From an uncultured Nitrospiraceae bacterium (lineage in GTDB: Bacteria > Nitrospirota > UBA9217), in NCBI GenBank assembly GCA_964412455.1, contig CAYPOT010000009.1, forward strand, positions 5,179-69,178: a DNA stretch of 64,000 bases. Reading direction: 5' to 3'. The notes beneath the pieces were generated by a model. That model saw nothing but the letters and a program-made list of their open reading frames with translations. It had not been told where the DNA came from and ran no database searches. Shown here piece by piece: positions 4,165 through 16,653 of this stretch; the stretch's first letter is position 1, and every line of letters starts with the position of its first letter. The translations under genes and the position numbers were made by a program.

Positions 4165-5262
4165 ATGAACCTTATCCCCCGCAAGAAGACTCGTTCGATC
4201 GCCCTCGGCAGCGTGAAGATCGGCTGGGGCTCGCCGGTTGCCGTCCAGTCCATGTGCAACACGGACACTCGGGACGCCGACACCACGCTCGTGCAGATCC
4301 GGCGTCTTGAAGCAGCCGGTTGCGAGATCGTCCGGCTTGCCGTGCCCGACACCGAGGCCGCGAAGGCCATCGGGAAGATCCGGAAAGGTACGACCGTTCC
4401 GCTCGTGGCCGATATCCACTTCGATCACCGGCTTGCCCTCGAAGCGGTGAAGCAGGGCGTTGATGGCCTTCGCATCAATCCGGGCAATATCGGAGGCAGG
4501 GACAAGGTCGCGGAAGTAGTGAGCGCCTGCAAGGACCGGCGTCTTCCCATTCGCATCGGGGTGAACGCGGGATCGCTCGAGAAGCACCTGCTAGAAAAGT
4601 ACGGCCACCCCACTCCTGAGGCTATCGTCGAGAGCGCGTTCGGCCATATTCGCATTCTTGAGGACCTGGATTACCGGGAGATCAAGGTCTCGCTCAAGGC
4701 GTCGGACGTTCTGACCACGGTCGAGGCCTACCGCCTGTTTGCGAAGCAGTCGGACTATCCTCTGCACATCGGCATCTCCGAGGCGGGCACGATCCACTCC
4801 GGCACGATCAAGTCGAGCGTCGGCCTCGGGATCCTGCTCGCCGAGGGCATCGGCGACACCATGCGGGTGTCGCTTACCGCGGACCCGGTCGAAGAGGTCC
4901 GCGTGGCCTACGGGATCCTTAAATCGCTCAAGATCCGTGAGCGGGGAGTGAATCTTATCTCCTGCCCCACCTGCGGCAGGACCGAGATCAATATCATCGG
5001 CCTTGCCGAAGAAGTGGAGCGCAGGCTCGGCCATATCACCGAGCCGCTCACCGTCGCGGTCATGGGCTGCGTGGTGAACGGGCCGGGCGAAGCGCGCGAG
5101 GCCGACATCGGCATCGCCGGCGGCAAAGGCGTGGGCATGCTGTTCAAGCACGGCGAGATCGTGAAAAGGTTCGACGAGAAAGAACTGGCGGATGTGCTGG
5201 TGAGGGAAGTTGAGAAGATGGTTCAATTACGTTCAAAGTTCAAGGTTCAAAGTTCAAAGTAG
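4165..5262 (+). CDS. ispG: 4-hydroxy-3-methylbut-2-enyl diphosphate synthase
   Basis: 365 aa; GcpE family features (RIGVNAGSLE, CPTCGRTE Fe-S cysteines). Confidence 0.9.
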   Translation: MNLIPRKKTRSIALGSVKIGWGSPVAVQSMCNTDTRDADTTLVQIRRLEAAGCEIVRLAVPDTEAAKAIGKIRKGTTVPLVADIHFDHRLALEAVKQGVDGLRINPGNIGGRDKVAEVVSACKDRRLPIRIGVNAGSLEKHLLEKYGHPTPEAIVESAFGHIRILEDLDYREIKVSLKASDVLTTVEAYRLFAKQSDYPLHIGISEAGTIHSGTIKSSVGLGILLAEGIGDTMRVSLTADPVEEVRVAYGILKSLKIRERGVNLISCPTCGRTEINIIGLAEEVERRLGHITEPLTVAVMGCVVNGPGEAREADIGIAGGKGVGMLFKHGEIVKRFDEKELADVLVREVEKMVQLRSKFKVQSSK

Positions 5263-5374: not shown

Positions 5375-5665
5375 ATGTCGACTATATCGATCAAAGGTGA
5401 TTCTTCGGAAACAGTCAGGTCACTCCTGACAAGTGCGTTGGACAGGGAAAAGCGCATTATTACTGACAGTTTGCGAACAACACGCGATAAGGTGAATGCC
5501 CTGGCAATAATGCTGTCGGTTGATGTTGAAAAGCTGATGCGGGGCGAGATCGAGCATGCTGAATCAAAGGACATGCAATTAATCGAACTCGAAGGGGAAG
5601 TCGAACTGCTCAGGCATCTTGAGACAGAGCTCAGGGAACTTGAAACCCTTGAAATATGCAGATAA
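5375..5665 (+). CDS. Small coiled-coil protein, putative antitoxin partner of the downstream DUF6516-like gene
   Basis: 96-aa ORF overlapping the next ORF by 10 nt, indicating translational coupling. Sits in an accessory-looking region of lower GC. Confidence 0.35.
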   Translation: MSTISIKGDSSETVRSLLTSALDREKRIITDSLRTTRDKVNALAIMLSVDVEKLMRGEIEHAESKDMQLIELEGEVELLRHLETELRELETLEICR

Positions 5666-6051
5666 AGGCATACCTTGACGGAATTCTCGATACACTTGCC
5701 GCGAATCCCCATGTGGAAGCCCAAAGTATTTCCTTTGAAGAACGCCCTCCCGATGCAGTCATCATAACAGGTATTGTCGCATTCATCGACGGCTCAAAAC
5801 TGCATATCAAAGAATTCCTGGTCCTGAAACCCGCTCATGCGGCTATCCTCAAGTATGGCTATCACTACGTGTCGAGTAAAGGTGAATTGATCTTCCGATA
5901 CGACAATGCGCTCGATCCCAAGGCGAGGGGATTGTCGACCTATCCGGAGCACAAACATGCTCCCGACGGATTAAAAGAAACCCGAAGACCATCGTGGCAG
6001 GATATTTTACGAGAAATTTCGAGCTCAATAGGCCAGTACATCAGGAAATAA
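5656..6051 (+). CDS. DUF6516 / TumE-family-like putative toxin
   Basis: 131 aa with ...IFRYDNALDPKARGLSTYPEHKHAPDG, resembling the RYDNAPHh..PHHKH signature I recall for DUF6516 (from memory, not searched). Confidence 0.4.
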   Translation: MQIKAYLDGILDTLAANPHVEAQSISFEERPPDAVIITGIVAFIDGSKLHIKEFLVLKPAHAAILKYGYHYVSSKGELIFRYDNALDPKARGLSTYPEHKHAPDGLKETRRPSWQDILREISSSIGQYIRK

Positions 6052-6069: not shown

Positions 6070-6171
6070 ATGCGTTATTCCCGTTTGTTCATCCCCACCC
6101 TGAAAGAAGCCCCGACCGACGCCGAGGCGGTCTCGCACAAGCTCATGGTGCGCGCGGGCTTCGTGCGATAA
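6070..6171 (+). pseudogene. Displaced 5' fragment of proS (first 33 codons, then stop)
   Basis: atgcgttattcccgtttgttcatccccaccctgaaagaagccccgaccgacgccgaggcggtctcgcacaagctcatggtgcgcgcgggcttcgtgcg duplicates the start of intact proS at 13824. The GGAGA RBS is retained. Confidence 0.85.
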
Positions 6172-6288: not shown

Positions 6289-6534
6289 ATGAAAACGCTG
6301 ATGAGCGAGAGGGGTCAGGTGGTGATCCCGAAAAAGATCCGGGAGACCATTCACCTCCATAAAGGCGACGAACTGGAGATCGAGGTGCGCGATGAGACGA
6401 TCGTGCTGAAGCCGCTTCGCAGGTTCAAGGCCAAAAAATGGCAGGATTACGCCGGAATCGGTGAAGGCATCGTGGCTGCCCATCTCAAGGACAAGAAGAA
6501 GGAAAAAGCCGATGAAGATGCTTATTCTCGATAG
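6289..6534 (+). CDS. AbrB/MazE/SpoVT-domain antitoxin (VapB-like)
   Basis: MKTLMSERGQVVIPKKIRETIHLHKGDELEIEV is a swapped-hairpin AbrB-type DNA-binding motif. It overlaps the downstream PIN gene. Confidence 0.7.
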   Translation: MKTLMSERGQVVIPKKIRETIHLHKGDELEIEVRDETIVLKPLRRFKAKKWQDYAGIGEGIVAAHLKDKKKEKADEDAYSR

Positions 6535-6931
6535 CTACGCACTGCTCTGTCTTTTCGATAAAAAGCGCAGGACGGAGAAGGAAGCGATAATGTCCTATCT
6601 TGAGGATGCGGGCAAAGGCAAGGCGAAGCTTTATATCAGCAAGATCAACGAAGGTGAAGTGTTTTATAAGCTCTATAAGTATTTCGGCGCCGAGATCGCG
6701 ACCGGATTCAGGGCAGACCTCAAGCGGGGAATGTTCCCCCTGCATGTCGTGCCCGTGAATGATAAACGAATAGACGAAGCGTCCGTGATTAAGGCGAAAT
6801 ATCCGGTATCCTACGCCGACGCATTTTGCATAGAACTTGCCAGGGACATGAACCTGCCTGTGGTGACAGGTGATCCGGAATTCGAGGCTGTGAAGGACCT
6901 GATAAAGCTACAGCCGCTTGCGGAACAGTAG
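6512..6931 (+). CDS. PIN-domain toxin (VapC-like)
   Basis: MKMLILDSYALL... (conserved acidic D near the N-terminus) ...TGDPEF; ~140 aa, overlapping the antitoxin stop. Confidence 0.65.
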   Translation: MKMLILDSYALLCLFDKKRRTEKEAIMSYLEDAGKGKAKLYISKINEGEVFYKLYKYFGAEIATGFRADLKRGMFPLHVVPVNDKRIDEASVIKAKYPVSYADAFCIELARDMNLPVVTGDPEFEAVKDLIKLQPLAEQ

Positions 6932-6949: not shown

Positions 6950-7056
6950 GCACGGCGAGATCGTGAAGAAGTCCGATGAGAAGGAATTGGCCGATGTGCT
7001 GGTGAGGGAAGTGGAAGATTTAGTTCGGCAAAAAAATAAAAGGTAAGATCGTATTT
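6950..7056 (+). pseudogene. Displaced 3' fragment of ispG (last ~35 codons)
   Basis: cacggcgagatcgtgaagaagtccgatgagaaggaattggccgatgtgctggtgagggaagtggaag duplicates ispG 5150-5215. It encodes ...HGEIVKKSDEKELADVLVREVEDLVRQKNKR*. Confidence 0.8.
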
Positions 7057-7115
7057 CGTTTGGTGTCTCTTACATTGATAAAATGCACCAATGTTGTTTA
7101 AGAGAGATTTCAATT

Positions 7116-8435
7116 ATGAAAAAATATTATGATCCTTTATATGGTGAAATCAAGCTAGATGAGCTTGTCTTTAGTATTATTGAAAAATGTCCTGAAATAA
7201 AGCGGCTCAGATATGTCGGCCTCATGAATTTCAAATCTTTGAGCATGCTACCTTTAACAAGCATCACGAGGTTAGAACATACAATTGGTCTATCGTACCT
7301 AGCACAATTATTTGCCGACTCAAATTCTTTTTCAAAAACATCGAGGAACAATTTAATCGTCGCTTCACTTTTTCATGATGTTAACAGCGCGTCATTTGGA
7401 CATGCTATTGAATGGGCAGTGGATCGCTATACGCCTTATAACCACGAAAAGGAAACCGAGTGGTTAGCTGATAAAGAAAAGACCTCGTTTTTAAACAAAA
7501 AGCCAATATTTATTGAGCAATATGGTGTGACAAGATATGATTTGGAAAAAGAATATGGATTTAACTTGACTAAGGCTTATCAAATTATTAACGGAGTGGA
7601 TTCATTTACAATTAACAATAATGGAATAGATCTAGATAACGTTGACAACGTTTTTCGTATGGGTTTATACATGGGGCTGGAACCTTTCGAAAAGGGATGC
7701 CCTGTAAGGTTAGCCAAGAGTTTAAAGATAGTTGACGGGCGTGATAATTTTGTTATTAAAGAGGAAGCTATTGACTTAGTGATGACATGGTATCAATTAA
7801 GAGCGAATATTTACGGGAGATTTATTTACTCCGAAGAGTATATGGGTTATGAATATCTTTTATTTCAACTTATTGCTGAGTATGCAAAACACGTTGAGTT
7901 TGATAGCATAAGAAATCTTTTTAATTACACGGATGAAAATCTATTGTGGCATTTTTATGATAAGAAGAATTCGCTCCCGTCGGTAAGTAATATAGCGAGC
8001 ATGTTATTATTGCATGATATTCCTAAGACATACGCAATATTGCGCTCAGATGAATTTGACAAAAAAGAAAAACTAATTAAACCTGGAATTCTAGATGCTA
8101 TTGCCCAAAGTGTGAGTGAGTATTTGCACAATTCTAAAGAGGTTTCGAACACATCATCAGGGGAAATATTTTTGCATTTAACGACAGACGATAGAAAAAC
8201 CAACAGACAAATTGACTTTTATGTAGAGAAGAGTGGAGAAGTTGTTAAGCAATCTATAGGTTTCGATAAGAGATACATTGTTATTGGTGTATTGGGGAAA
8301 AAAAATCTGTCAGAAAAAGTAAAAACGCTAATCGCAGAAAAAACCATTGAAAAGCTTAGAAGCAGTAATTTGGGTAATTTCGATAATATTGAATTCGTCG
8401 AATCAAATGCGTTAAAGCAAAAAGTGCTATTCTAG
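7116..8435 (+). CDS. HD-domain phosphohydrolase, dGTPase/SAMHD1-like (dNTP triphosphohydrolase-like)
   Basis: DPLYGEIKL...IKRLRYVGLMNF...TRLEHTIGLSYLA...LIVASLFHDV, pattern of Dgt/SAMHD1 N-terminal HD region. First gene of the AT-rich operon. Alternative ATG at 7083. Confidence 0.55.
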   Translation: MKKYYDPLYGEIKLDELVFSIIEKCPEIKRLRYVGLMNFKSLSMLPLTSITRLEHTIGLSYLAQLFADSNSFSKTSRNNLIVASLFHDVNSASFGHAIEWAVDRYTPYNHEKETEWLADKEKTSFLNKKPIFIEQYGVTRYDLEKEYGFNLTKAYQIINGVDSFTINNNGIDLDNVDNVFRMGLYMGLEPFEKGCPVRLAKSLKIVDGRDNFVIKEEAIDLVMTWYQLRANIYGRFIYSEEYMGYEYLLFQLIAEYAKHVEFDSIRNLFNYTDENLLWHFYDKKNSLPSVSNIASMLLLHDIPKTYAILRSDEFDKKEKLIKPGILDAIAQSVSEYLHNSKEVSNTSSGEIFLHLTTDDRKTNRQIDFYVEKSGEVVKQSIGFDKRYIVIGVLGKKNLSEKVKTLIAEKTIEKLRSSNLGNFDNIEFVESNALKQKVLF

Positions 8436-8451
8436 CCGCACCTTTTAATTT

Positions 8452-9660
8452 ATGGAAAAGAAAAAAGATATTTCGCATTTTGATTTGCTTGATTGGAATT
8501 TTACTAGAGAAGATTCGAGACTCTACTTGCACAATTTCTGTTGGTATCCTTCAAGATTCATCCCAATAATCCCAGCCCACTTAATTCAAGCCCTAAGCAA
8601 GACCAATGAAACTGTGCTGGATCCGTTTTGCGGAATAGGGACTACGTTAGTCGAGGCTTTGAAGCAGAGGCGAAATGCAATTGGCGTTGATTTAAATCCA
8701 ATCGCATGCTTTGTCTCTAAAACTAAAGGAAAAATATTGACAGGTCATAAAGTAAACCTGTCTCTAATTGAAGGCTTGTTAGAAAACCTGGCGCCGTTGA
8801 GTGGTGATGATCTATTCACAAAAAAACGCACAGGTAGAGGTCATTATAATTTACGGGAGAAGTCAATCCCAAATTACGCTGTCAATGTGGAATGGTTTCA
8901 TCCCGAAACTTTAAAAATGCTTTCGCATATATACTATTCTGTCGAAGATCTTCCGAGAGGACTTACGAGGGATATATGCAAAATATTTTTTATTTCAATT
9001 CTCATGCAGTCCTCCGGGCACGATTTGAATAAGCCATACACTTATTATGCAGACAATGTGAAGCCTAAAAAAGAAAAATTGATTAAAGACGCCTACAAAC
9101 TATATGTGCAAAAATTGGATAAATTTTTATGTGAATATAAGCTCATAGAGTTACCCGAGAAAAACAGGCTGGATTTTGCCGTATACAACGAAGATGCGAG
9201 AGGGTTAGAAGGTTTGGTGGATAAAAAAGTTGACCTTATAGTTACTTCGCCTCCGTATTTAAATGTTACTGACTATACAACTGGCTTTAGGTTAGCTCAT
9301 CTGTGGTATAGCTTTCAAAAGGATATGCGTATTGAGGACATTAAAAGAAGAGAAATTGGTGCTCGATACAGGCGGAAGTCACGTAACAGTTTAAATGAAT
9401 ATGTCGGGGATATGCAGTCAGTCCTTTGCAAAATGGACAGCGTTTTAAAGACCAATGGGTATCTTTGCTTGATTCTTGGTGAATCACAAAAATACTCCAA
9501 GATTGTGAATAAGATAATAATGGACTTTATGTCGAACGAATTGCGGTTAGAATATATTGATTCTTTTAGTCGTGAGATAATAAAAAAATTCTTCATTCAT
9601 CCAAATGGTGGGGGTGTCAGTACAGAAGAAATTATTATTTACAGAAAAAAAAGAAAGTGA
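8452..9660 (+). CDS. DNA methyltransferase, N4/N6 family (motif I FxGxG then motif IV SPPY)
   Basis: VLDPFCGIGTTLVEA...IGVDLNP (AdoMet motifs I-III) and DLIVTSPPY (catalytic motif IV) about 200 aa later. SPPY is typical of N4-cytosine methyltransferases. Confidence 0.65.
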   Translation: MEKKKDISHFDLLDWNFTREDSRLYLHNFCWYPSRFIPIIPAHLIQALSKTNETVLDPFCGIGTTLVEALKQRRNAIGVDLNPIACFVSKTKGKILTGHKVNLSLIEGLLENLAPLSGDDLFTKKRTGRGHYNLREKSIPNYAVNVEWFHPETLKMLSHIYYSVEDLPRGLTRDICKIFFISILMQSSGHDLNKPYTYYADNVKPKKEKLIKDAYKLYVQKLDKFLCEYKLIELPEKNRLDFAVYNEDARGLEGLVDKKVDLIVTSPPYLNVTDYTTGFRLAHLWYSFQKDMRIEDIKRREIGARYRRKSRNSLNEYVGDMQSVLCKMDSVLKTNGYLCLILGESQKYSKIVNKIIMDFMSNELRLEYIDSFSREIIKKFFIHPNGGGVSTEEIIIYRKKRK

Positions 9661-10766
9661 GGTGTGTCTGCGCTATGGAAAATCACATCGTCATGATGCC
9701 TAATATGATAATACCATATGGCTACGAAATAGTGCCAATTATGGCTTATCCTGCTGGTTTTATCTACAGATTTAGATTTGATGAGGAATGGCTTTCAGAT
9801 AGGATAAAAGCCGATGTGTCTTCATTGTCAGCGAAAAAGGGTTATATCGTTTTCAGAGATCCAGAAAGCGCTACGTTTTACCCCATAAGGCATATCACAA
9901 TCAAGGTGGCGCAAAGAATAGGTAAATACTATTATTTTGAATATGAATTAAATGAAATATTTGACTTTGATTCTAACGAAACATGGAGGACAAAGCAAAT
10001 AACTCAATTTAATGACTCTTTTAAGAGTTTTCATGAATCAGAGTTTAAAGACAACATTCCTGGTAAAGATATGAAGCCCCTCGTATTTTTGACTAATTTT
10101 GCACCAACCATAAATAATGAACATGTCCAATTTACAAATCCATTGGAAAATGAGTTGGAGCGATGGGGAAATATAATTTCAATTATTAAAAATATAAAGT
10201 TTTATGAAAACGTAGAATTTATAAAAATCCTTGATATAGTGCCAATGAAAAAGCGAGACGAGGAAGTGCAAGTTAAAGAGAATTATTTATTTGTACAAGA
10301 AGACGGCGATTATAAGTTGAGGATATTTCAGCTTAAGCCTAAAGGATCGGTAGAAAGGATCGAACCGAAAGATATTGAAGTAAGATCAGACGACAAATAT
10401 ATTAGCGTCATAAGAAATAAACAACGCGCAGTAGGGAAGTATGATGTGCTAAGTTTCGTTTTCCGCGTGCATGCCGGCAGTGGAGGCCAGAGAAGTTATT
10501 TAGATGTTCTACATGCTCCCAAAACAGAAGCAGCCCAGTACATTGCGCCGACACTGTATCTTCCAGTAGCTATTCAAGGAAAAAGAAAGCTAATGGTTAT
10601 AAGAATTTTATTTGCCTTTGTCTTAGTCTCATTCTATCTTTTTCCTGAGGCTATAAGTTTCATATCTGATCACAGGATTGTGAAGGATTTTGCTATGGTC
10701 CTCTTCACTATTTCTGTGATAGATATTCTGAAAGAAATACGGGACCTGTTTAAGGCGAATAGATAA
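9657..10766 (+). CDS. Hypothetical protein with soluble N-domain and two C-terminal transmembrane helices
   Basis: No recognisable motif. C-terminus LMVIRILFAFVLVSFYLFPEAI...VKDFAMVLFTISVIDIL is strongly hydrophobic. Start overlaps the MTase stop (ATGA) and its stop overlaps the next start. Confidence 0.45.
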   Translation: MRCVCAMENHIVMMPNMIIPYGYEIVPIMAYPAGFIYRFRFDEEWLSDRIKADVSSLSAKKGYIVFRDPESATFYPIRHITIKVAQRIGKYYYFEYELNEIFDFDSNETWRTKQITQFNDSFKSFHESEFKDNIPGKDMKPLVFLTNFAPTINNEHVQFTNPLENELERWGNIISIIKNIKFYENVEFIKILDIVPMKKRDEEVQVKENYLFVQEDGDYKLRIFQLKPKGSVERIEPKDIEVRSDDKYISVIRNKQRAVGKYDVLSFVFRVHAGSGGQRSYLDVLHAPKTEAAQYIAPTLYLPVAIQGKRKLMVIRILFAFVLVSFYLFPEAISFISDHRIVKDFAMVLFTISVIDILKEIRDLFKANR

Positions 10767-12907
10767 TGGTTATCGTTGGCCTAAACCTTGGTTCAACAGA
10801 ATTTAATAAGAAATTACACGACGGAGGCATCTGTATTGTTGTTGATGGTAAAGTAAAATTCGCAGTGGCTGAAGAGCGTATTTCGCGCAGAAAGCGCTCA
10901 GGCGGATTCAGGGAATCACTGGACTATGCTCTTTCTTGTTTGAATTTAGATAGGAGTAATATCGATCTTGTTGTTTATTCAAGCTGTTGTGAGAGTATTA
11001 ACAATAGCATTAACATCGCAGAATTACAGAATATAAAATCAATTCCCTGTGACCATCATCTATCTCACGCTTTAAGTGTGTATCTGACATCTCCTTATGA
11101 AAAGGCACTTATTGCCGTTTTAGACGCAGGAGGAAATCTTCTCGGTAATGACAACCATAGTGACTGGTGGCTTCATTCCCGAGAGCAGCAATCATACTAT
11201 GTCGCAGAAGGGAACAATGTCACGCTAATTGATAGAGATTTTATCTTACCTGAAGCAGCAGGCATAGGGGAAATATATCGTGCCTTTACATATTATCTTG
11301 GGTGGGAATCTTCTCGATTTGCAGGCAAGACCATGGCGCTTGCCGCATATGGAGATCCTGGTGCATTTAAAGGTAACAACATATTTGACTTGGACATAAA
11401 TGGGAACATACGCTCACATATAAAAAATAATCCGATAGAGCCCTTGTCTATGGTTGAGCAGTTACTCGATAGATATGGGAGAAAAAATGTGCCTCCTCGG
11501 AAAGATGGTCAACCGATTCTACAAGTGCATAGTGATCTTGCTCGCTGGATACAAAATGAAACGGAGGACATAGTAACCGCAAAACTTAACTATTTAATGC
11601 GTAAGACAGGCATTTCTAATCTTTGTTTGGCAGGAGGAGTTGCCTATAATTGCTCGATGGTTGGAAAGATAATGAATAATACTATGGCAAATAATGTTTT
11701 TCTCCAGCCGGCATCGGGTGATCAAGGTCAATGTCTTGGCAATGCCATGTTTGGATACACTCAAATTAGAAATGCTTGGATAAGAGTTAATCCATTCAAT
11801 CCATATCTAGGATGCGGTATTGAAATAAACCATGATACAATTCGAGGCGCGTTAAAGAGTAATAATCAGGTTACAATTAATGCCCCGCGTGATATAGCAG
11901 TAACAACTGCAAAATTACTCTCGCAAGGAGAAATAGTGGCGTGGTTCCAAGATCGGAGTGAATTCGGTCCTCGTGCCTTGGGCAATCGAAGTATTCTTGC
12001 AAACCCCTGTCTTTCGAAGAGTAAGGAGAAATTGAATTCAATAAAGGGTCGTGAAGACTTTATGCCTTTTGCTCCGACTGTTCTATACGAAAGTGCAAAA
12101 GACTATTTTGTGATTTCCGATGAATGTCCTTTTATGACTGCAGCAGTTAAGGTGCGCCCAAACGTCAGAGAAACAATACCGGCAGCTGTCCATGTGGACG
12201 GAACATCTAGAGTCCAAACATTGAGAAAAGAAAATAATCCGCTATTTTACGATTTGATACATGAATTCTACAAGTTGACAAAAGTGCCATTAATTATTAA
12301 TACTTCATTCAATGCAGCTGGTGAGCCTATTGTTGAAACACTTAATAATGCAATAGACACTTTTATGAAATTAGACATAAGATTTATGGTAGCTGGTTCG
12401 TTCCTTCTGGAAAAGCCATTGGTTAGAACATCTATGCCTAGTGTCAAAGATGCAGGTCGGTTGTTGGATATTGTATTTGGGGCGGATCTGATCGTCAACG
12501 AGACGGAATTAAGTGCGCTGCTTAGTGAGCGCTTTCCGGGAATTAAATCCTTTCCTAGAGATAAATTTTTGCTCAATGAAAAATTTATTAATTGGTTAAA
12601 AAACGGCAGAAAAACGACAACCATTAGGTATAAGAAAGTGGGTATAGATTTCCCAGTGGCGACATGTTTGCCGCTAATTCCGACAAAAGATTTTTCAAAA
12701 AATCGAGGTGAAGCGCCAGTTGGCTTTTTGAAAATAAGAAAATATATAATAAAAAAATATCGGGATCTTAATGAAACAGATGCTCGTAATGATGGATTTA
12801 AAACTCTAACGGAGCTAAGAAGTGTTCTTTTCGATATCTATGGTGCTATACAAGAAGATGACTATGTTTCTATATACTATGTTCAAATAAAAAATAATCC
12901 AAGTTAA
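10766..12907 (+). CDS. NodU/CmcH-type carbamoyltransferase (Kae1/YgjD-like N-domain + carbamoyltransferase C-domain) with ~170-aa C-terminal extension, possibly ASCH/PUA-like
   Basis: MVIVGLNLGST...DGGICIVVDGKVKFAVAEERISRRKR...CDHHLSHALSVY (Carbam_trans_N) and RSILANPCLSKSKEKLNSIKGREDFMPFAPTV (Carbam_trans_C). Tail INWLKNGRKTTTIRYKKV is a weak ASCH-like motif. Confidence 0.6.
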   Translation: MVIVGLNLGSTEFNKKLHDGGICIVVDGKVKFAVAEERISRRKRSGGFRESLDYALSCLNLDRSNIDLVVYSSCCESINNSINIAELQNIKSIPCDHHLSHALSVYLTSPYEKALIAVLDAGGNLLGNDNHSDWWLHSREQQSYYVAEGNNVTLIDRDFILPEAAGIGEIYRAFTYYLGWESSRFAGKTMALAAYGDPGAFKGNNIFDLDINGNIRSHIKNNPIEPLSMVEQLLDRYGRKNVPPRKDGQPILQVHSDLARWIQNETEDIVTAKLNYLMRKTGISNLCLAGGVAYNCSMVGKIMNNTMANNVFLQPASGDQGQCLGNAMFGYTQIRNAWIRVNPFNPYLGCGIEINHDTIRGALKSNNQVTINAPRDIAVTTAKLLSQGEIVAWFQDRSEFGPRALGNRSILANPCLSKSKEKLNSIKGREDFMPFAPTVLYESAKDYFVISDECPFMTAAVKVRPNVRETIPAAVHVDGTSRVQTLRKENNPLFYDLIHEFYKLTKVPLIINTSFNAAGEPIVETLNNAIDTFMKLDIRFMVAGSFLLEKPLVRTSMPSVKDAGRLLDIVFGADLIVNETELSALLSERFPGIKSFPRDKFLLNEKFINWLKNGRKTTTIRYKKVGIDFPVATCLPLIPTKDFSKNRGEAPVGFLKIRKYIIKKYRDLNETDARNDGFKTLTELRSVLFDIYGAIQEDDYVSIYYVQIKNNPS

Positions 12908-12939
12908 TTAGTTGCTCTGCTAAACGACAAAACACAAAA

Positions 12940-13782
12940 ATGACGCAATTTTTGAAAGACTTGCTGCGAAACTATGGGCTCTTGTACATAACGCTTACGC
13001 AGCTTTTGAGTGAGCGACCAGGAAACAAGTATGCTTCGCTGGACGAGTACTATCACAGTCTGGGCATGCAGACGCCTGATAACCCAATGTTTTACGTGCA
13101 TCCGAGCTCGGATGGCAAAACGCGCTACTTAGACGAGGGAGAGCACGATATTGAAGCGCGTGATGATGCGGGTAACAAGGTTGGAAAAGTAGTTGGCGTT
13201 TTGGAACTTCCGGAAGACGAATTCTATTTTTTTCAAGCATTCCGTCCTGGCATGTTCGATTTAGAAAAGGATCTTCCTTCATTTCTTTTTGAAATGGCAT
13301 TAATTTATGCTAATTCTCTATTTGAAAATTACATATCTAGCATTATTCGTCTCAGGTTTCAAAAACACCCAGAACTGATGGGTGTCAATAAACAAGTGAC
13401 TTATGGTCAAGTAATTAAGAGCAATTCGAAACAAGATGTCATCGAGCACCTGATTAATCGAGAAGTCCAACAATTGATGTATGAGCCTATCGGTGCAGTA
13501 TTGGAACGAATGCGAGCAAAATACGGATTTCGAGATCTAACCACGAAGTACGACGAGGAAATAATTTATCTGTCACTTATAAGAAATTGCGTTATGCATA
13601 ATTCTCGGAAGGTTGATTCTAAGCTTGCCACCAATAAACCTAAGCTAGTATTAGGCGAAAGATTGCCTGTTGAAAAGAGTCTCGTGGACACAGCAATTCA
13701 TACTTACCGAAAATTTTGCTATGAAGTTGATATCATGTTAGAAGCTATTGGATCACTCAAACAAACAAGTGAGCCTCTATGA
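12940..13782 (+). CDS. Hypothetical protein with HEPN-like Rx4H motif (LIRNCVMHNSRK)
   Basis: 280 aa, last gene of the AT-rich operon. R-x4-H near the C-terminal third is compatible with a HEPN RNase motif. No other recognisable features. Confidence 0.35.
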   Translation: MTQFLKDLLRNYGLLYITLTQLLSERPGNKYASLDEYYHSLGMQTPDNPMFYVHPSSDGKTRYLDEGEHDIEARDDAGNKVGKVVGVLELPEDEFYFFQAFRPGMFDLEKDLPSFLFEMALIYANSLFENYISSIIRLRFQKHPELMGVNKQVTYGQVIKSNSKQDVIEHLINREVQQLMYEPIGAVLERMRAKYGFRDLTTKYDEEIIYLSLIRNCVMHNSRKVDSKLATNKPKLVLGERLPVEKSLVDTAIHTYRKFCYEVDIMLEAIGSLKQTSEPL

Positions 13783-13823: not shown

Positions 13824-15518
13824 ATGCGCTACTCGAAACTGTTCATTCCTACATTAAAAGAGGCGCCGACCGACGCCGAGGCGGTCTCGCACAAGCTCAT
13901 GGTGCGCGCCGGCTTCGTGCGCCAGCTCGCGGCGGGGCTCTATATCTACCTTCCGCTGGGCATCCGGGTGATGGAGAAGATCAACCGCATTATCCGCGAG
14001 GAAATGAACGCCATCGGCGGCCAGGAAGTGACCATGCCGGTGCTGAATCCCGCCGAGGTGTGGCAGCAGACCGGGCGGTGGGATGCCATCGGCGGCGAGA
14101 TGTTCCGTCTCAAGGACCGCGGCGGCAGGGACATGTGCCTGGCCATGACCCACGAGGAGACCATGACCTGGCTCGCGGCGCACGATATCCGTTCCTACCG
14201 GGAACTGCCCCAGATCTGGTACCAGGTGCAGACGAAATTACGGGACGAAGCGCGGCCCAAGAGCGGCGTACTCCGGACGCGCGAGTTCACCATGAAGGAC
14301 TCCTACAGCTTCGACGCCGATGAGGCCGGGCTCGACCGGTCCTATCAACTTCATCTCGAGGCCTACAAGAAGATCTACTCCCGCTGCGGAATTCGATTTC
14401 ACGTGGTCCAGAGCGACACGGGCATGATGGGCGGCAGCATGGCGCACGAGTACATGGCGCCTTCTCCGGCGGGCGAGGACGACGTGGCGCTCTGCGATGG
14501 CTGCGGGTACGCGGCGAACACGGAGCTCGCGCTGTCCGTGCCGAAGGCGGCTGCATCATCGAACGACAGTTACGAGGAGATCGCTACGCCGGAACGGCGA
14601 ACCATCGACGAGGTGACCCGCTTCCTGAAGGTCACGCCGGACCGTTTGCTCAAGTCCATCCTCGTCACGACCGACCAGGGACCGCTGCTGGCGCTGGTGC
14701 GCGGCGACCAGACCCTGCATGAGAAGAAGCTGGCCAAGCTTATCGGACCCCATCGGCCCGCGCAGAAGGACGAGGTGAAGGCCGCTCTCGGCGTGCCTGT
14801 CGGATTCATCGGCCCCATGGGCCACAAGATCCGGAAGATCGCTGACCTGGTGCTGAAACAGGGGACCCACATCGCCGGCGCGAACAAGGAAGGCTTCCAT
14901 GTGAAGGGTGTCTCCGCGGACAAGCATTTCAGCGACGCCGAGTTCGCGGACATCCACACCGCGGCGGAAGGCGACGCCTGCGCCCAGTGCGGCAAGCCGC
15001 TGCGCATCGAGCGGGTCATCGAGATCGGGAACATCTTCAAGCTGGGCACCAAGTACTCCGTCCCGCTCAAGGCGAACTACCTTGACGAACAGGGGAATGA
15101 GAAGCCCATCATCATGGGGAGCTACGGCATCGGCCCGGCGCGCATCGCCGCCGCGGCCATCGAGCAGGGGAACGACGAGAACGGCATCATCTGGCCGGCG
15201 GCGATCGCGCCCTACCAGGTCCTGATCGTGCCGGTGAACGTGAAAGACCAGCGCTCCATGGACGTGGCCGAGGAGATGCACACGGCCCTTGAGGAAAAAG
15301 GGTTCGAGGCGCTCATGGACGACCGCGACGAACGGGCCGGCGTCAAGTTCAAGGACGCGGACCTTATCGGCATTCCGTACCGGGTCGTCATCGGCGAGAA
15401 GAACCTGAAGGAAGACCTGGTGGAGCTTAAGGAGCGGAAGACCGGGGTCGTGGTCAAGGTGAAGGTCGCCGACGCGGTGGCGGCGATCGTGAAGAAGATC
15501 GTGATGGAGAACGCGTAA
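13824..15518 (+). CDS. proS: Proline--tRNA ligase
   Basis: [32 protein letters not shown]-terminus and class II aaRS motifs. ATG 13824 preferred over TTG 13803. The first ~45 nt are notably AT-richer than the displaced copy at 6070. Confidence 0.9.
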   Translation: MRYSKLFIPTLKEAPTDAEAVSHKLMVRAGFVRQLAAGLYIYLPLGIRVMEKINRIIREEMNAIGGQEVTMPVLNPAEVWQQTGRWDAIGGEMFRLKDRGGRDMCLAMTHEETMTWLAAHDIRSYRELPQIWYQVQTKLRDEARPKSGVLRTREFTMKDSYSFDADEAGLDRSYQLHLEAYKKIYSRCGIRFHVVQSDTGMMGGSMAHEYMAPSPAGEDDVALCDGCGYAANTELALSVPKAAASSNDSYEEIATPERRTIDEVTRFLKVTPDRLLKSILVTTDQGPLLALVRGDQTLHEKKLAKLIGPHRPAQKDEVKAALGVPVGFIGPMGHKIRKIADLVLKQGTHIAGANKEGFHVKGVSADKHFSDAEFADIHTAAEGDACAQCGKPLRIERVIEIGNIFKLGTKYSVPLKANYLDEQGNEKPIIMGSYGIGPARIAAAAIEQGNDENGIIWPAAIAPYQVLIVPVNVKDQRSMDVAEEMHTALEEKGFEALMDDRDERAGVKFKDADLIGIPYRVVIGEKNLKEDLVELKERKTGVVVKVKVADAVAAIVKKIVMENA

Positions 15519-16151: not shown

Positions 16152-16243
16152 TACCGGTCATTTGCGGGGAGGCCCGCAATTCTCTCAAATCAGTTAACCC
16201 GGTTCATTCAGCAACCATGCCATGAAAGAAGGAGGTGAACCCC

Positions 16244-16432
16244 TTGAAAAAACTGTTTGCTGTCATGCTTTCATTGCTTATCGTAGCGGCATTCGTCTTT
16301 ATCGGCTGCGAGAAGAAACCCGAACCGCCGAAGCCCGCACCGGCCCCGGCAGTAGCACCGCCGCCTCCGGCACCAGCACCGGCCCCGGCTCCGGCCCCGG
16401 CACCCACGCCTGCGAAGCCTGCAAAGAAGTAA
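16244..16432 (+). CDS. Small lipoprotein with Ala-Pro repeat tail
   Basis: LKKLFAVMLSLLIVAAFVFIGC (lipobox FIGC) then (PA)n repeat. TTG 16244 or GTG 16235 start after GGAGG. Confidence 0.5.
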   Translation: MKKLFAVMLSLLIVAAFVFIGCEKKPEPPKPAPAPAVAPPPPAPAPAPAPAPAPTPAKPAKK

Positions 16433-16467
16433 TGTACCGCGGGATCTATCAGCTTGTGACCCTATTG

Positions 16468-16494
16468 TGGCCCCCGTCAGGGGGCCTTTTCTTT
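16468..16494 (+). terminator. Rho-independent terminator
   Basis: ggcccccgtcagggggcc hairpin followed by a T-run. Confidence 0.6.
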
Positions 16495-16653
16495 GGAAAG
16501 TACGCCATCATTTTAAAAAGCATTTGGACACGGAAGCATTAGGATTAACGCCTGATAAGGGCGGATAAAAAAACAGGAGACTCTCGCTGACAAAAGTTAA
16601 AGTACCTTCCCCTGAAATATCCGTTTTTATCCGGTTATTATCAGATTTGAGCC

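Follow-up and report, generated by a model that had tools for sequence, protein, structure and literature searches.

A mobile four-gene cassette joining a carbamoyltransferase to a membrane-anchored EVE/YTH-like protein as a candidate undescribed anti-phage system

The known immune repertoire spans methylation, deazaguanine, phosphorothioate, cyclic nucleotides and chain terminators, and Kae1/TsaD proteins, which are relatives of the carbamoyltransferases considered here, acylate the N6 of adenine in tRNA. In the recently described PUA-Cal-HAD network, a PUA-like sensor binds Dam-derived N6-methyl-deoxyadenosine monophosphate (m6-dAMP) and triggers depletion of deoxynucleoside triphosphates (dNTPs), and related PUA-like sensors are linked to methylases and to operons for modified-base synthesis (bioRxiv 10.64898/2026.01.15.699771). 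A TobZ-family enzyme is able to carbamoylate 5-hydroxymethylcytosine (5hmC) in DNA and RNA (MetaGPA study, eLife 2021, PMC8670742), and YqfB of E. coli is an N4-acetylcytidine (ac4C) amidohydrolase, in which mutagenesis found Lys21, Thr24 and Arg26 to be essential and Tyr89 to contribute (PMC6972931). In this study, we analyzed a stretch of 64,000 nucleotides from an uncultured Nitrospiraceae bacterium (assembly GCA_964412455.1, contig CAYPOT010000009.1, positions 5,179 to 69,178; hereafter the window), which contains an AT-rich block where a carbamoyltransferase is encoded together with an HD-domain hydrolase, a DNA methylase and a membrane protein. We read these four genes, tentatively, as one mobile and co-inherited cassette, most likely of an undescribed type directed against phages or other mobile genetic elements and working through a carbamoylated nucleoside or nucleotide. 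The cassette consists of the following features, given in coordinates of the window.

7116-8435 (forward strand; the open reading frame opens at 7083): gene 1, SAMHD1-like HD phosphohydrolase (Pfam HD, E 1e-05; SAMHD1 profile match)
8452-9660 (forward strand): gene 2, PF01555-type DNA methyltransferase, permuted (Pfam N6_N4_Mtase, E 3.7e-20; PADLOC MTase_II, E 2.3e-37)
9657-10766 (forward strand): gene 3, predicted EVE/YTH-like PUA fold (residues 1-183), immunoglobulin (Ig)-like beta-sandwich (about 185-307) and hairpin of two transmembrane (TM) segments (310-359), from an AlphaFold2 model
10766-12907 (forward strand): gene 4, TobZ/NodU-type carbamoyltransferase (Kae1-like N-terminal and YrdC-like C-terminal domains) with an ASCH domain (Pfam and PDB matches)
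12578-12865 (forward strand): YqfB-like ASCH domain of gene 4, residues about 605-700 (Pfam ASCH, E 4.9e-06)

The order HD protein, methylase, gene 3 and carbamoyltransferase is identical in 14 independent loci, namely the window, the loci L003, L005, L007 and L009, five loci from a scan of species genomes (L014-L018) and four from a metagenome scan (L022-L024 and L026). The hosts are Syntrophobacterales, Patescibacteria, Gammaproteobacteria, Sedimenticola, Thermodesulfovibrionales, Rariloculaceae and Mariprofundaceae metagenome-assembled genomes (MAGs), in addition to metagenomes. The cassette spans about 5.8 kb, and wherever the relevant part of a gene lies on the contig, its catalytic motifs are intact. 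Across the eight complete loci, the four proteins diverge from their window counterparts in a rank-correlated way (rho 0.76-0.93), which indicates that the four genes travel as a unit. An earlier reading of the window from its letters alone (the sequence-only reading) had treated the genes as belonging together, and their co-occurrence in one order across these loci supports a co-inherited unit. The cassette is rare and patchy across phyla, with 7 loci among 185,579 species genomes. Because profile scans of IMG/VR found no relatives of gene 3 or of the HD protein, a phage-type mobile cassette for DNA hypermodification, which the same reading had also entertained, is disfavoured; a search of PLSDB found no match for gene 3. 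As judged from these searches, the cassette is cellular or prophage cargo rather than a typical phage DNA-modification operon.

The deeper evolutionary core of the system is, by sequence comparison, the pair formed by gene 3 and the carbamoyltransferase, with the methylase and the HD protein as one of several accessory sets. The bare pair occurs in Nonomuraea (L006), with the motifs PY..., GFRYR.RFD..W and VGKYD retained in the gene 3 homologue, and again in L029, where a FitA/PIN module flanks it on one side and an integrase on the other. The pair of a Bacteroidetes MAG (L020) has no ASCH and is tightly preceded by a MutT-like NUDIX-WGR gene (PADLOC candidate PDC-S07), whose NUDIX domain is similar to pyrimidine dNTP diphosphatases; this pair adjoins a transposase and a SPARTA system (TIR-APAZ with a short prokaryotic Argonaute). 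The transferase and the gene 3 homologue of L032 are separated by a uridine-kinase-like gene (NF004018, E 3e-29), which is translationally coupled to both. The SAMHD1-like HD protein, the NUDIX protein and the uridine/cytidine-kinase-like protein are three non-homologous partners, all of them predicted to act on free nucleosides or nucleotides, and this weakens the idea of DNA hypermodification or self-marking.

Two of these variant loci call for a description of their surroundings. In L020 (4481-11811), a PLD-like nuclease gene, the SPARTA genes, the NUDIX-WGR gene and the pair follow one another on the same strand with overlapping ends of their open reading frames, and the NUDIX-WGR gene may belong to the pair, to SPARTA or to neither. 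We considered the TIR and PLD genes as partners of the pair and now count them as neighbours only, since PADLOC assigns the TIR gene and the adjacent gene of 514 aa to SPARTA; the PLD gene matches DrmC/DpdK/MkoC-type models only (PADLOC). In L032 (5636-9380), the carbamoyltransferase has no ASCH, the gene 3-like protein is 459 aa long, and the genes lie beside a class II ribonucleotide reductase (RNR) and a thymidylate kinase (Tmk). This arrangement points to a variant of the core pair with a link to nucleotide metabolism.

Among the four-gene loci whose flanks can be read, most are embedded in mobile or defence-rich DNA. A Type ISP restriction-modification (R-M) system is directly adjacent in two of them, ThsB-TIR and GIY-YIG genes are near one, and HsdM neighbours some; one locus has an integrase upstream and a ResIII/methylase set with TraG downstream, one lies within a prophage and is followed by portal, protease and capsid genes, one stands behind an integrase and a P2 GPA-type replication gene, and the cassette of the window comes after two toxin-antitoxin (TA) modules. 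The exception is L016, where the flanks hold transporter and radical-SAM genes. A role in defence or genetic conflict, as had been suggested from the sequence of the window, is the best reading of these neighbourhoods, with their R-M, TA, SPARTA, prophage and integrase contexts.

Gene 4 belongs to the TobZ/NodU/CmcH family, as shown by both Pfam domains above the gathering score (Carbam_trans_N, PF02543, E 1.8e-38, 133.3 bits against a cut-off of 24; Carbam_trans_C, PF16861, E 4.8e-64, 215.4 bits against a cut-off of 27) and by the HxxxH signature. Its metal motif is HHLSH at residue 97, with HHxSH present in 17/17 copies examined. The relatives in PDB are NovN (1.1e-71), GdmN and TobZ, with E values ranging from 1e-71 to 1e-48, and NCBIfam shows similarity to TsaD. 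The sequence-only reading had noted an extra C-terminal domain, which we now identify as a YqfB-like ASCH domain (27.6 bits against a Pfam cut-off of 21.2). Full-length homologues of the carbamoyltransferase-ASCH fusion are numerous, most full-length homologues of gene 4 have ASCH in their precomputed annotation, and in L009 ASCH is a separate gene directly 3' of the transferase. As a single sequence, the ASCH region had no meaningful match in PDB, and a family profile was required; with a profile of 21 ASCH domains, YqfB is the sole meaningful solved relative (E 0.006, nearly full length). Within this weak alignment the counterparts of YqfB K21, T24, R26 and Y89 are invariant or nearly so, E74 is replaced by an invariant Asp, and H70 is replaced by Asp in gene 4. 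YqfB works with a Thr-Lys-Glu triad and an Arg oxyanion hole, and of these residues it is the Glu that has changed here.

Gene 3 has no sequence match in Pfam, NCBIfam, PADLOC, PHROGs or PDB, and 24/24 members of its family are without a Pfam match even at E<=10, which leaves the protein outside the Pfam EVE and YTH families as such. The AlphaFold2 model, built from 24 homologues, is confident (predicted local distance difference test, pLDDT, 88.5) and consists of an N-terminal alpha/beta domain, an Ig-like sandwich and two C-terminal helices that correspond to the hydrophobic segments 310-337 and 340-359. Fold searches with the whole protein returned Ig-like matches only; the matches that bear on the N-terminal domain are YTH domains (6.5), the N-terminal readers of McrB (5.8), YqfB (5.5), the 5hmC-dependent nuclease VcaM4I (5.5) and ASCH (5.4), and in the predicted structure this domain has the PUA-like beta-barrel. 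The family alignment displays a conserved aromatic and basic cluster (GFxYRFRFDEEW; R38, R40, R78), and the C-terminal hydrophobic hairpin is retained in 116 of the 121 full-length relatives. Both hydrophobic segments are flanked by basic residues and a signal peptide is absent, so that, by the positive-inside rule, the two soluble domains are probably both cytoplasmic. Hence, the model describes gene 3 as a membrane-tethered protein with the fold of PUA-superfamily modified-base readers. The earlier label of a two-TM protein was right as to the hairpin and incomplete as to the rest, because the EVE/YTH-like fold and the Ig-like domain make gene 3 the most informative part of the cassette. The family comprises 353 clusters at E<=1e-10 among 1.84 billion representatives. 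An alternative start at ATG 9675, as called in ENA, would give a 14-nt gap to gene 2 instead of a 4-nt overlap. We also considered a 565-aa relative of gene 3 (P0189; L031, 6006-7703) as a new effector fusion and did not use it, since its C-terminal 280 residues are of low complexity and probably an artefact; no carbamoyltransferase adjoins it, and it is flanked by Xre-RES, GmrSD and an integrase.

The start of gene 1 is more likely M12 (7116, MKKYYDP...), because the SAMHD1 alignment and all homologues begin there. SAMHD1 chains are its only significant PDB matches (E 4e-07 as a single sequence, 1.7e-10 with a family profile), over just about 100-200 N-terminal residues. Both the H...HD...D metal site and the SAMHD1-like N-terminal core are present: the counterparts of the SAMHD1 ligands are R52-x-E-H55, H87-D88 and D174 in GIDLD (GIDVD in SAMHD1), and R52, H55, H87-D88 and GIDLD are invariant in every locus with that part of the open reading frame on the contig. 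Among the profile libraries, Pfam HD alone matches gene 1, and does so weakly; no PADLOC dGTPase model and no NCBIfam model matches it. By these signatures the HD domain is of the SAMHD1 dNTPase type and not Cas3-like. In gene 2, the motif order is permuted, with DPFCGxG (here DPFCGIG) at residue 57 and SPPY at residue 266; SPPY is kept in 13/13 other copies and DPFCGxG wherever the N-terminus is on the contig. Distant relatives in phages and archaeal viruses are annotated as N4-cytosine or PspGI-like methylases, which together with SPPY favours N4-methylcytosine (m4C) as the mark that gene 2 may make; N6-adenine enzymes (MboIIA) match as well. Gene 2 thus carries the AdoMet and (S/D/N)PPY motifs expected of a Type II R-M methylase, and no nuclease family was found in genes 1, 3, 4 and 5 with Pfam, PADLOC and NCBIfam. 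The domain calls made from the sequence for the HD protein, the PF01555 methylase with SPPY and Carbam_trans_N/C all hold in profile searches against Pfam and PADLOC.

To account for this combination of genes, we propose that the carbamoyltransferase would form carbamoyl-AMP from carbamoyl phosphate and ATP and would carbamoylate a pyrimidine nucleoside or nucleotide, probably of the cytidine type, while the ASCH pocket would select or proofread N4-substituted or otherwise modified cytosine. Gene 3 would bind the modified nucleotide with its EVE-like domain and then switch, through its Ig-like domain and two-TM hairpin, to a membrane-perturbing state of abortive infection. In the four-gene variant, the SAMHD1-like HD protein would convert (d)NTPs to nucleosides, both feeding the transferase and depleting the pool, and the SPPY methylase would write a private mark on host DNA, probably m4C. 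In parallel to PUA-Cal-HAD, the breakdown products of this mark during phage-induced degradation of the chromosome would serve as the input specific to infection. Cytosine or cytidine is the target to which several weak leads point: the YqfB-like ASCH, the uridine/cytidine kinase, the NUDIX protein, the SPPY methylase and the 5hmC precedent. That the carbamoylated nucleoside or nucleotide serves as an alarm ligand for a membrane-anchored EVE-like receptor, or else as an antiviral analogue, with its input coming from the private methyl mark, is a possibility that we hold with considerable doubt.

A number of observations weigh against the cassette being an immune system of this kind. The acceptor, the product and the phenotype are all proposed by comparison with relatives, and the step from methylome to alarm is made by analogy only. 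PF01555 methylases act on polymeric DNA, which would fit a mechanism at the level of DNA at least as naturally, and the two-TM hairpin could be a mere anchor and not an effector. The link between ASCH and YqfB is a weak one (E 0.006), and ASCH is missing from some of the pair or triple variants (L020, L032); gene 4, for its part, is no closer to the phage 5hmC enzymes (about 31% identity) than to the antibiotic carbamoyltransferases. The pair or triple is found twice in a housekeeping context, in Nonomuraea and in L032 beside RNR and Tmk, so that the core pair may be metabolic or regulatory in some lineages. Furthermore, the enrichment in defence islands is a judgement from about a dozen loci rather than a statistical result.

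The main rival is self-marking of DNA in the manner of R-M, which the sequence-only reading had put forward: the methylase and the carbamoyltransferase would decorate host DNA (with m4C and/or an N-carbamoylated base), ASCH would flip or position the cytosine, and the HD protein and the membrane EVE reader would tell marked DNA from unmarked and restrict invaders. The tight co-inheritance of the four genes is consistent with such a system, as are the DNA-type PF01555 methylase with its invariant SPPY and DPFCGxG, the EVE, YTH and ASCH folds, which typically read bases in polymers, and the acylation of tRNA by the Kae1/TsaD relatives. A base in DNA is also carbamoylated by a member of the TobZ family (PMC8670742). 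However, the cassette holds no nuclease fold detectable with Pfam or PADLOC, the HD protein being a dNTPase-type enzyme, and the core pair exists without any methylase, while the alternative partners NUDIX and uridine-kinase-like proteins are enzymes of free nucleotides. Moreover, canonical DNA lacks a hydroxyl that could accept the carbamoyl group, neither a hydroxymethylase nor a TET gene is linked, and a reader of the self mark beside its writer misfits simple restriction logic. We regard self-marking, weakened by the free-nucleotide accessory sets, the methylase-free pair and the lack of a nuclease, as rather unlikely.

Two further alternatives draw on the same evidence. If the pair were a module of nucleoside salvage, modification or regulation, for instance one that processes, at the membrane, modified cytidines derived from RNA turnover, its four-gene form would be a selfish or addictive mobile variant with no part in defence. 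The housekeeping neighbourhoods in Nonomuraea and beside RNR and Tmk, the latter with a uridine-kinase-like gene, would agree with this, as would the fact that YqfB is itself a catabolic ac4C enzyme; yet the four-gene form is rare, is scattered over phyla and shows a strong AT shift here, most loci examined are in prophages or integrase islands or next to R-M, TA or SPARTA genes, and a DNA methylase and a SAMHD1-like enzyme would be unusual for salvage, which makes a non-immune role quite unlikely in our view. Sensing in the manner of Type IV restriction, where the transferase would O-carbamoylate phage 5hmC or 5-hydroxymethyluracil (5hmU) nucleotides or DNA, the PUA-like domains would recognise these bases, the HD protein would destroy the modified dNTP pool and the membrane protein would execute abortive infection, takes up the only demonstrated nucleic-acid activity of the enzyme family, O-carbamoylation of 5hmC (PMC8670742), and a methylase-free pair of gene 3 and carbamoyltransferase fits a sensor of foreign modification. 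It is nevertheless very unlikely, for it leaves the co-inherited methylase without a role, the transferase has no special similarity to the phage 5hmC enzymes, and carbamoylation of a phage base would, if anything, shield the phage DNA. A natural-product (antibiotic) cluster is ruled out by the lack of scaffold-biosynthesis genes in any locus.

The remaining features of the block are its fifth gene and its two boundaries.

12940-13782 (forward strand): gene 5, stand-alone HEPN-type protein with an invariant RNCxxHN motif, outside the conserved cassette
6950-7026 (forward strand): remnant of a duplicated ispG 3' end, at the left edge of the AT-rich block, with GC falling from 0.51 to 0.36 just after it
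13824-13921 (forward strand): 5' end of proS (domains by Pfam), right boundary of the block, with an 85% copy at 6070-6167

The HEPN-like Rx4H motif recognised from the sequence of gene 5 is invariant across its family (R215-N-x3-H220, with R215, N216 and H220 all invariant) and agrees with the Rx4-6H pattern of HEPN proteins. PADLOC, NCBIfam, PHROGs and a PDB sequence search returned nothing for gene 5 and no Pfam model covers the family; 11/24 members give weak HEPN_RiboL-PSP matches, and there are also weak matches to Cthe2314 and Swt1. The proteins of this family are about 270 aa long and share, besides RNCxxHN, an invariant ELPEDEF motif. In soil and other metagenomes (L011, L012, L013), the homologues are solitary among BrnT/BrnA, PIN and MqsA genes, and every other cassette locus lacks one. 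Because the HEPN gene accompanies the cassette in this genome only, the conserved unit is one of four genes and the inclusion of gene 5, as first assumed, is not upheld; the five-gene block is the four-gene cassette plus a separate HEPN gene, which may be co-transcribed here. We propose that gene 5 is an independent toxin or defence gene of the HEPN RNase type that shares the island, and its family may represent undescribed single-gene HEPN toxins or defence proteins with an N-terminal sensor or antitoxin-like domain.

The five open reading frames of the block (7083-8435, 8452-9660, 9657-10766, 10766-12907 and 12940-13782) all lie on the forward strand with spacings of 17, -4, -1 and 33 nt, as had been stated before, the overlap at gene 3 being subject to the choice of start. 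The tight packing stands, and the five-gene operon inferred from it stands in part: one transcript is compatible with the sequence, and the unit that is conserved has four genes and not five. A scan for promoters and terminators, uninformative in such AT-rich DNA, gave site counts at the level of shuffled sequence and no forward-strand terminator between the genes, which is compatible with a single transcript and no proof of one. The GC content of the block is 0.32-0.42 over 7001-13500 against 0.55-0.65 in the flanks, in line with the contrast to surroundings of about 60% GC seen earlier by eye. On either side are the core genes ispG (GcpE, 4165-5262) and proS (true ATG at 13824, end at 15518), and parts of both are duplicated: the first 98 nt of proS (13824-13921) are copied at 6070-6167 (85%), and 77 nt of the ispG 3' end (5148-5224) are copied at 6950-7026 (83%). 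These two direct repeats bear out the proposed insertion hotspot with its duplicated gene-end fragments, and the AT shift and the duplications together support foreign DNA inserted there. The order across the hotspot is ispG, tumA-like/tumE, proS', mazE/PIN, ispG', AT-rich block, proS. Since the duplicated ispG 3' and proS 5' fragments mark the insertions, we read the hotspot as three cargoes inserted in a nested fashion, each of which came with a diverged duplicate of the end of a flanking core gene.

Among the neighbouring genes, a TumE-family toxin (5656-6051; Pfam TumE 2.6e-19; PADLOC candidate PDC-M44B 7.5e-15) overlaps an open reading frame of 96 aa (5375-5665), and this two-gene module (5375-6051) looks like a separate, earlier insertion because the proS 5' copy (6070-6167) comes next. 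Next come a MazE-type antitoxin (6289-6534), a PIN-domain toxin (about 6512-6931; Pfam PIN 3.9e-13) and then the ispG 3' copy; this mazE/PIN pair is the second nested cargo of the hotspot. Beyond proS, a GC-rich unit of 18 nt (CCCGCACCGGCCCCGGCA) occurs in three copies at 16334-16402, inside a small open reading frame (16222-16542) in which it probably encodes a Pro/Ala-rich repeat.

The sequence-only reading knew of no defence system with this composition, and that judgement agrees with our searches: in PADLOC-DB v2 only generic MTase_II models match, with genes 1, 3, 4 and 5 unmatched, and the full-text literature holds no description linking a carbamoyltransferase to ASCH/EVE readers, a methylase or defence. 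Classical R-M fails as an identity for the cassette in that no endonuclease was detected. The cassette shares with Type II R-M, MADS, BREX and DISARM a PF01555 methylase that is inherited together with putative effector genes on a mobile island, but it lacks a restriction endonuclease, PglZ, a helicase and any other signature gene, and PADLOC matches the generic methylase region alone (mad2, E 1e-11, on the AdoMet motif). Gene 1 resembles the dNTP-depletion defence of the SAMHD1/dGTPase type in its N-terminal HD alignment, in the metal ligands (H, HD, D) and in an invariant Arg equivalent to R164. However, an identity with dGTPase defence fails on the curated PADLOC and NCBIfam models and on architecture, as dGTPase defence is a single gene whereas gene 1 was seen, in the loci examined, solely as the first gene of the four-gene cassette.

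The carbamoyltransferase of phage 5hmC pathways (PMC8670742) has the same two-domain TobZ/NodU-type architecture (PF02543 and PF16861). It differs from gene 4 in sequence (about 31% identity) and in having no ASCH fusion, and the pathway as an identity for the cassette fails on linkage and on phage residence: no dCMP hydroxymethylase, thymidylate-synthase homologue or TET gene was found in the window or any related locus, and the cassette is cellular, with neither gene 3 nor the HD protein having relatives in IMG/VR. The N4-acylcytidine amidohydrolases of the YqfB type (PMC6972931) are the best solved-structure match for the ASCH domain, which keeps the GRKxTTIR motif; the similarity is weak (E 0.006), with Asp in place of both E74 and H70, and these enzymes are free-standing, whereas the ASCH of the cassette is fused to the carbamoyltransferase or encoded directly after it. 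In logic only, a cytoplasmic ligand-binding domain with a short C-terminal TM region, encoded beside a nucleotide-modifying enzyme, recalls the TM effectors of CBASS and Pycsar, but the cassette has no cyclase, CD-NTase or SAVED/CARF domain, and the presumed carbamoylation chemistry of its ligand has no counterpart among known signals.

With the PUA-Cal-HAD network (bioRxiv 10.64898/2026.01.15.699771), the cassette shares pocket domains of the PUA superfamily as sensors of modified bases or nucleotides (putative here), a linked DNA methylase and modified-base enzymes, an output through a nucleotide-pool hydrolase, and contexts of defence islands and mobile elements. It differs in that its sensors belong to another PUA family, an EVE/YTH-like fold without a Pfam match plus ASCH, in that Calcineurin-CE and HAD are absent and the hydrolase is an HD protein of the SAMHD1 type, and in that its reader is membrane-anchored and its carbamoyltransferase is absent from that paper. 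By comparison, each enzyme falls within a known superfamily, while the cassette, and especially the pair of transferase and EVE-Ig-2TM protein, appears to lie outside every described system. If the role is defence, carbamoyl transfer would be an immune chemistry not yet seen. A carbamoyltransferase directed at nucleobases or nucleosides, with its YqfB-like pocket, and a product-specific reader could provide tools for labelling and detecting nucleic acids. If the proposed mechanism is true, the cassette would represent a new signalling or effector chemistry with a new family of membrane-tethered receptors on the EVE/YTH fold and, after PUA-Cal-HAD, a second independent case in which a writer, a PUA-like reader and a nucleotide hydrolase are combined.

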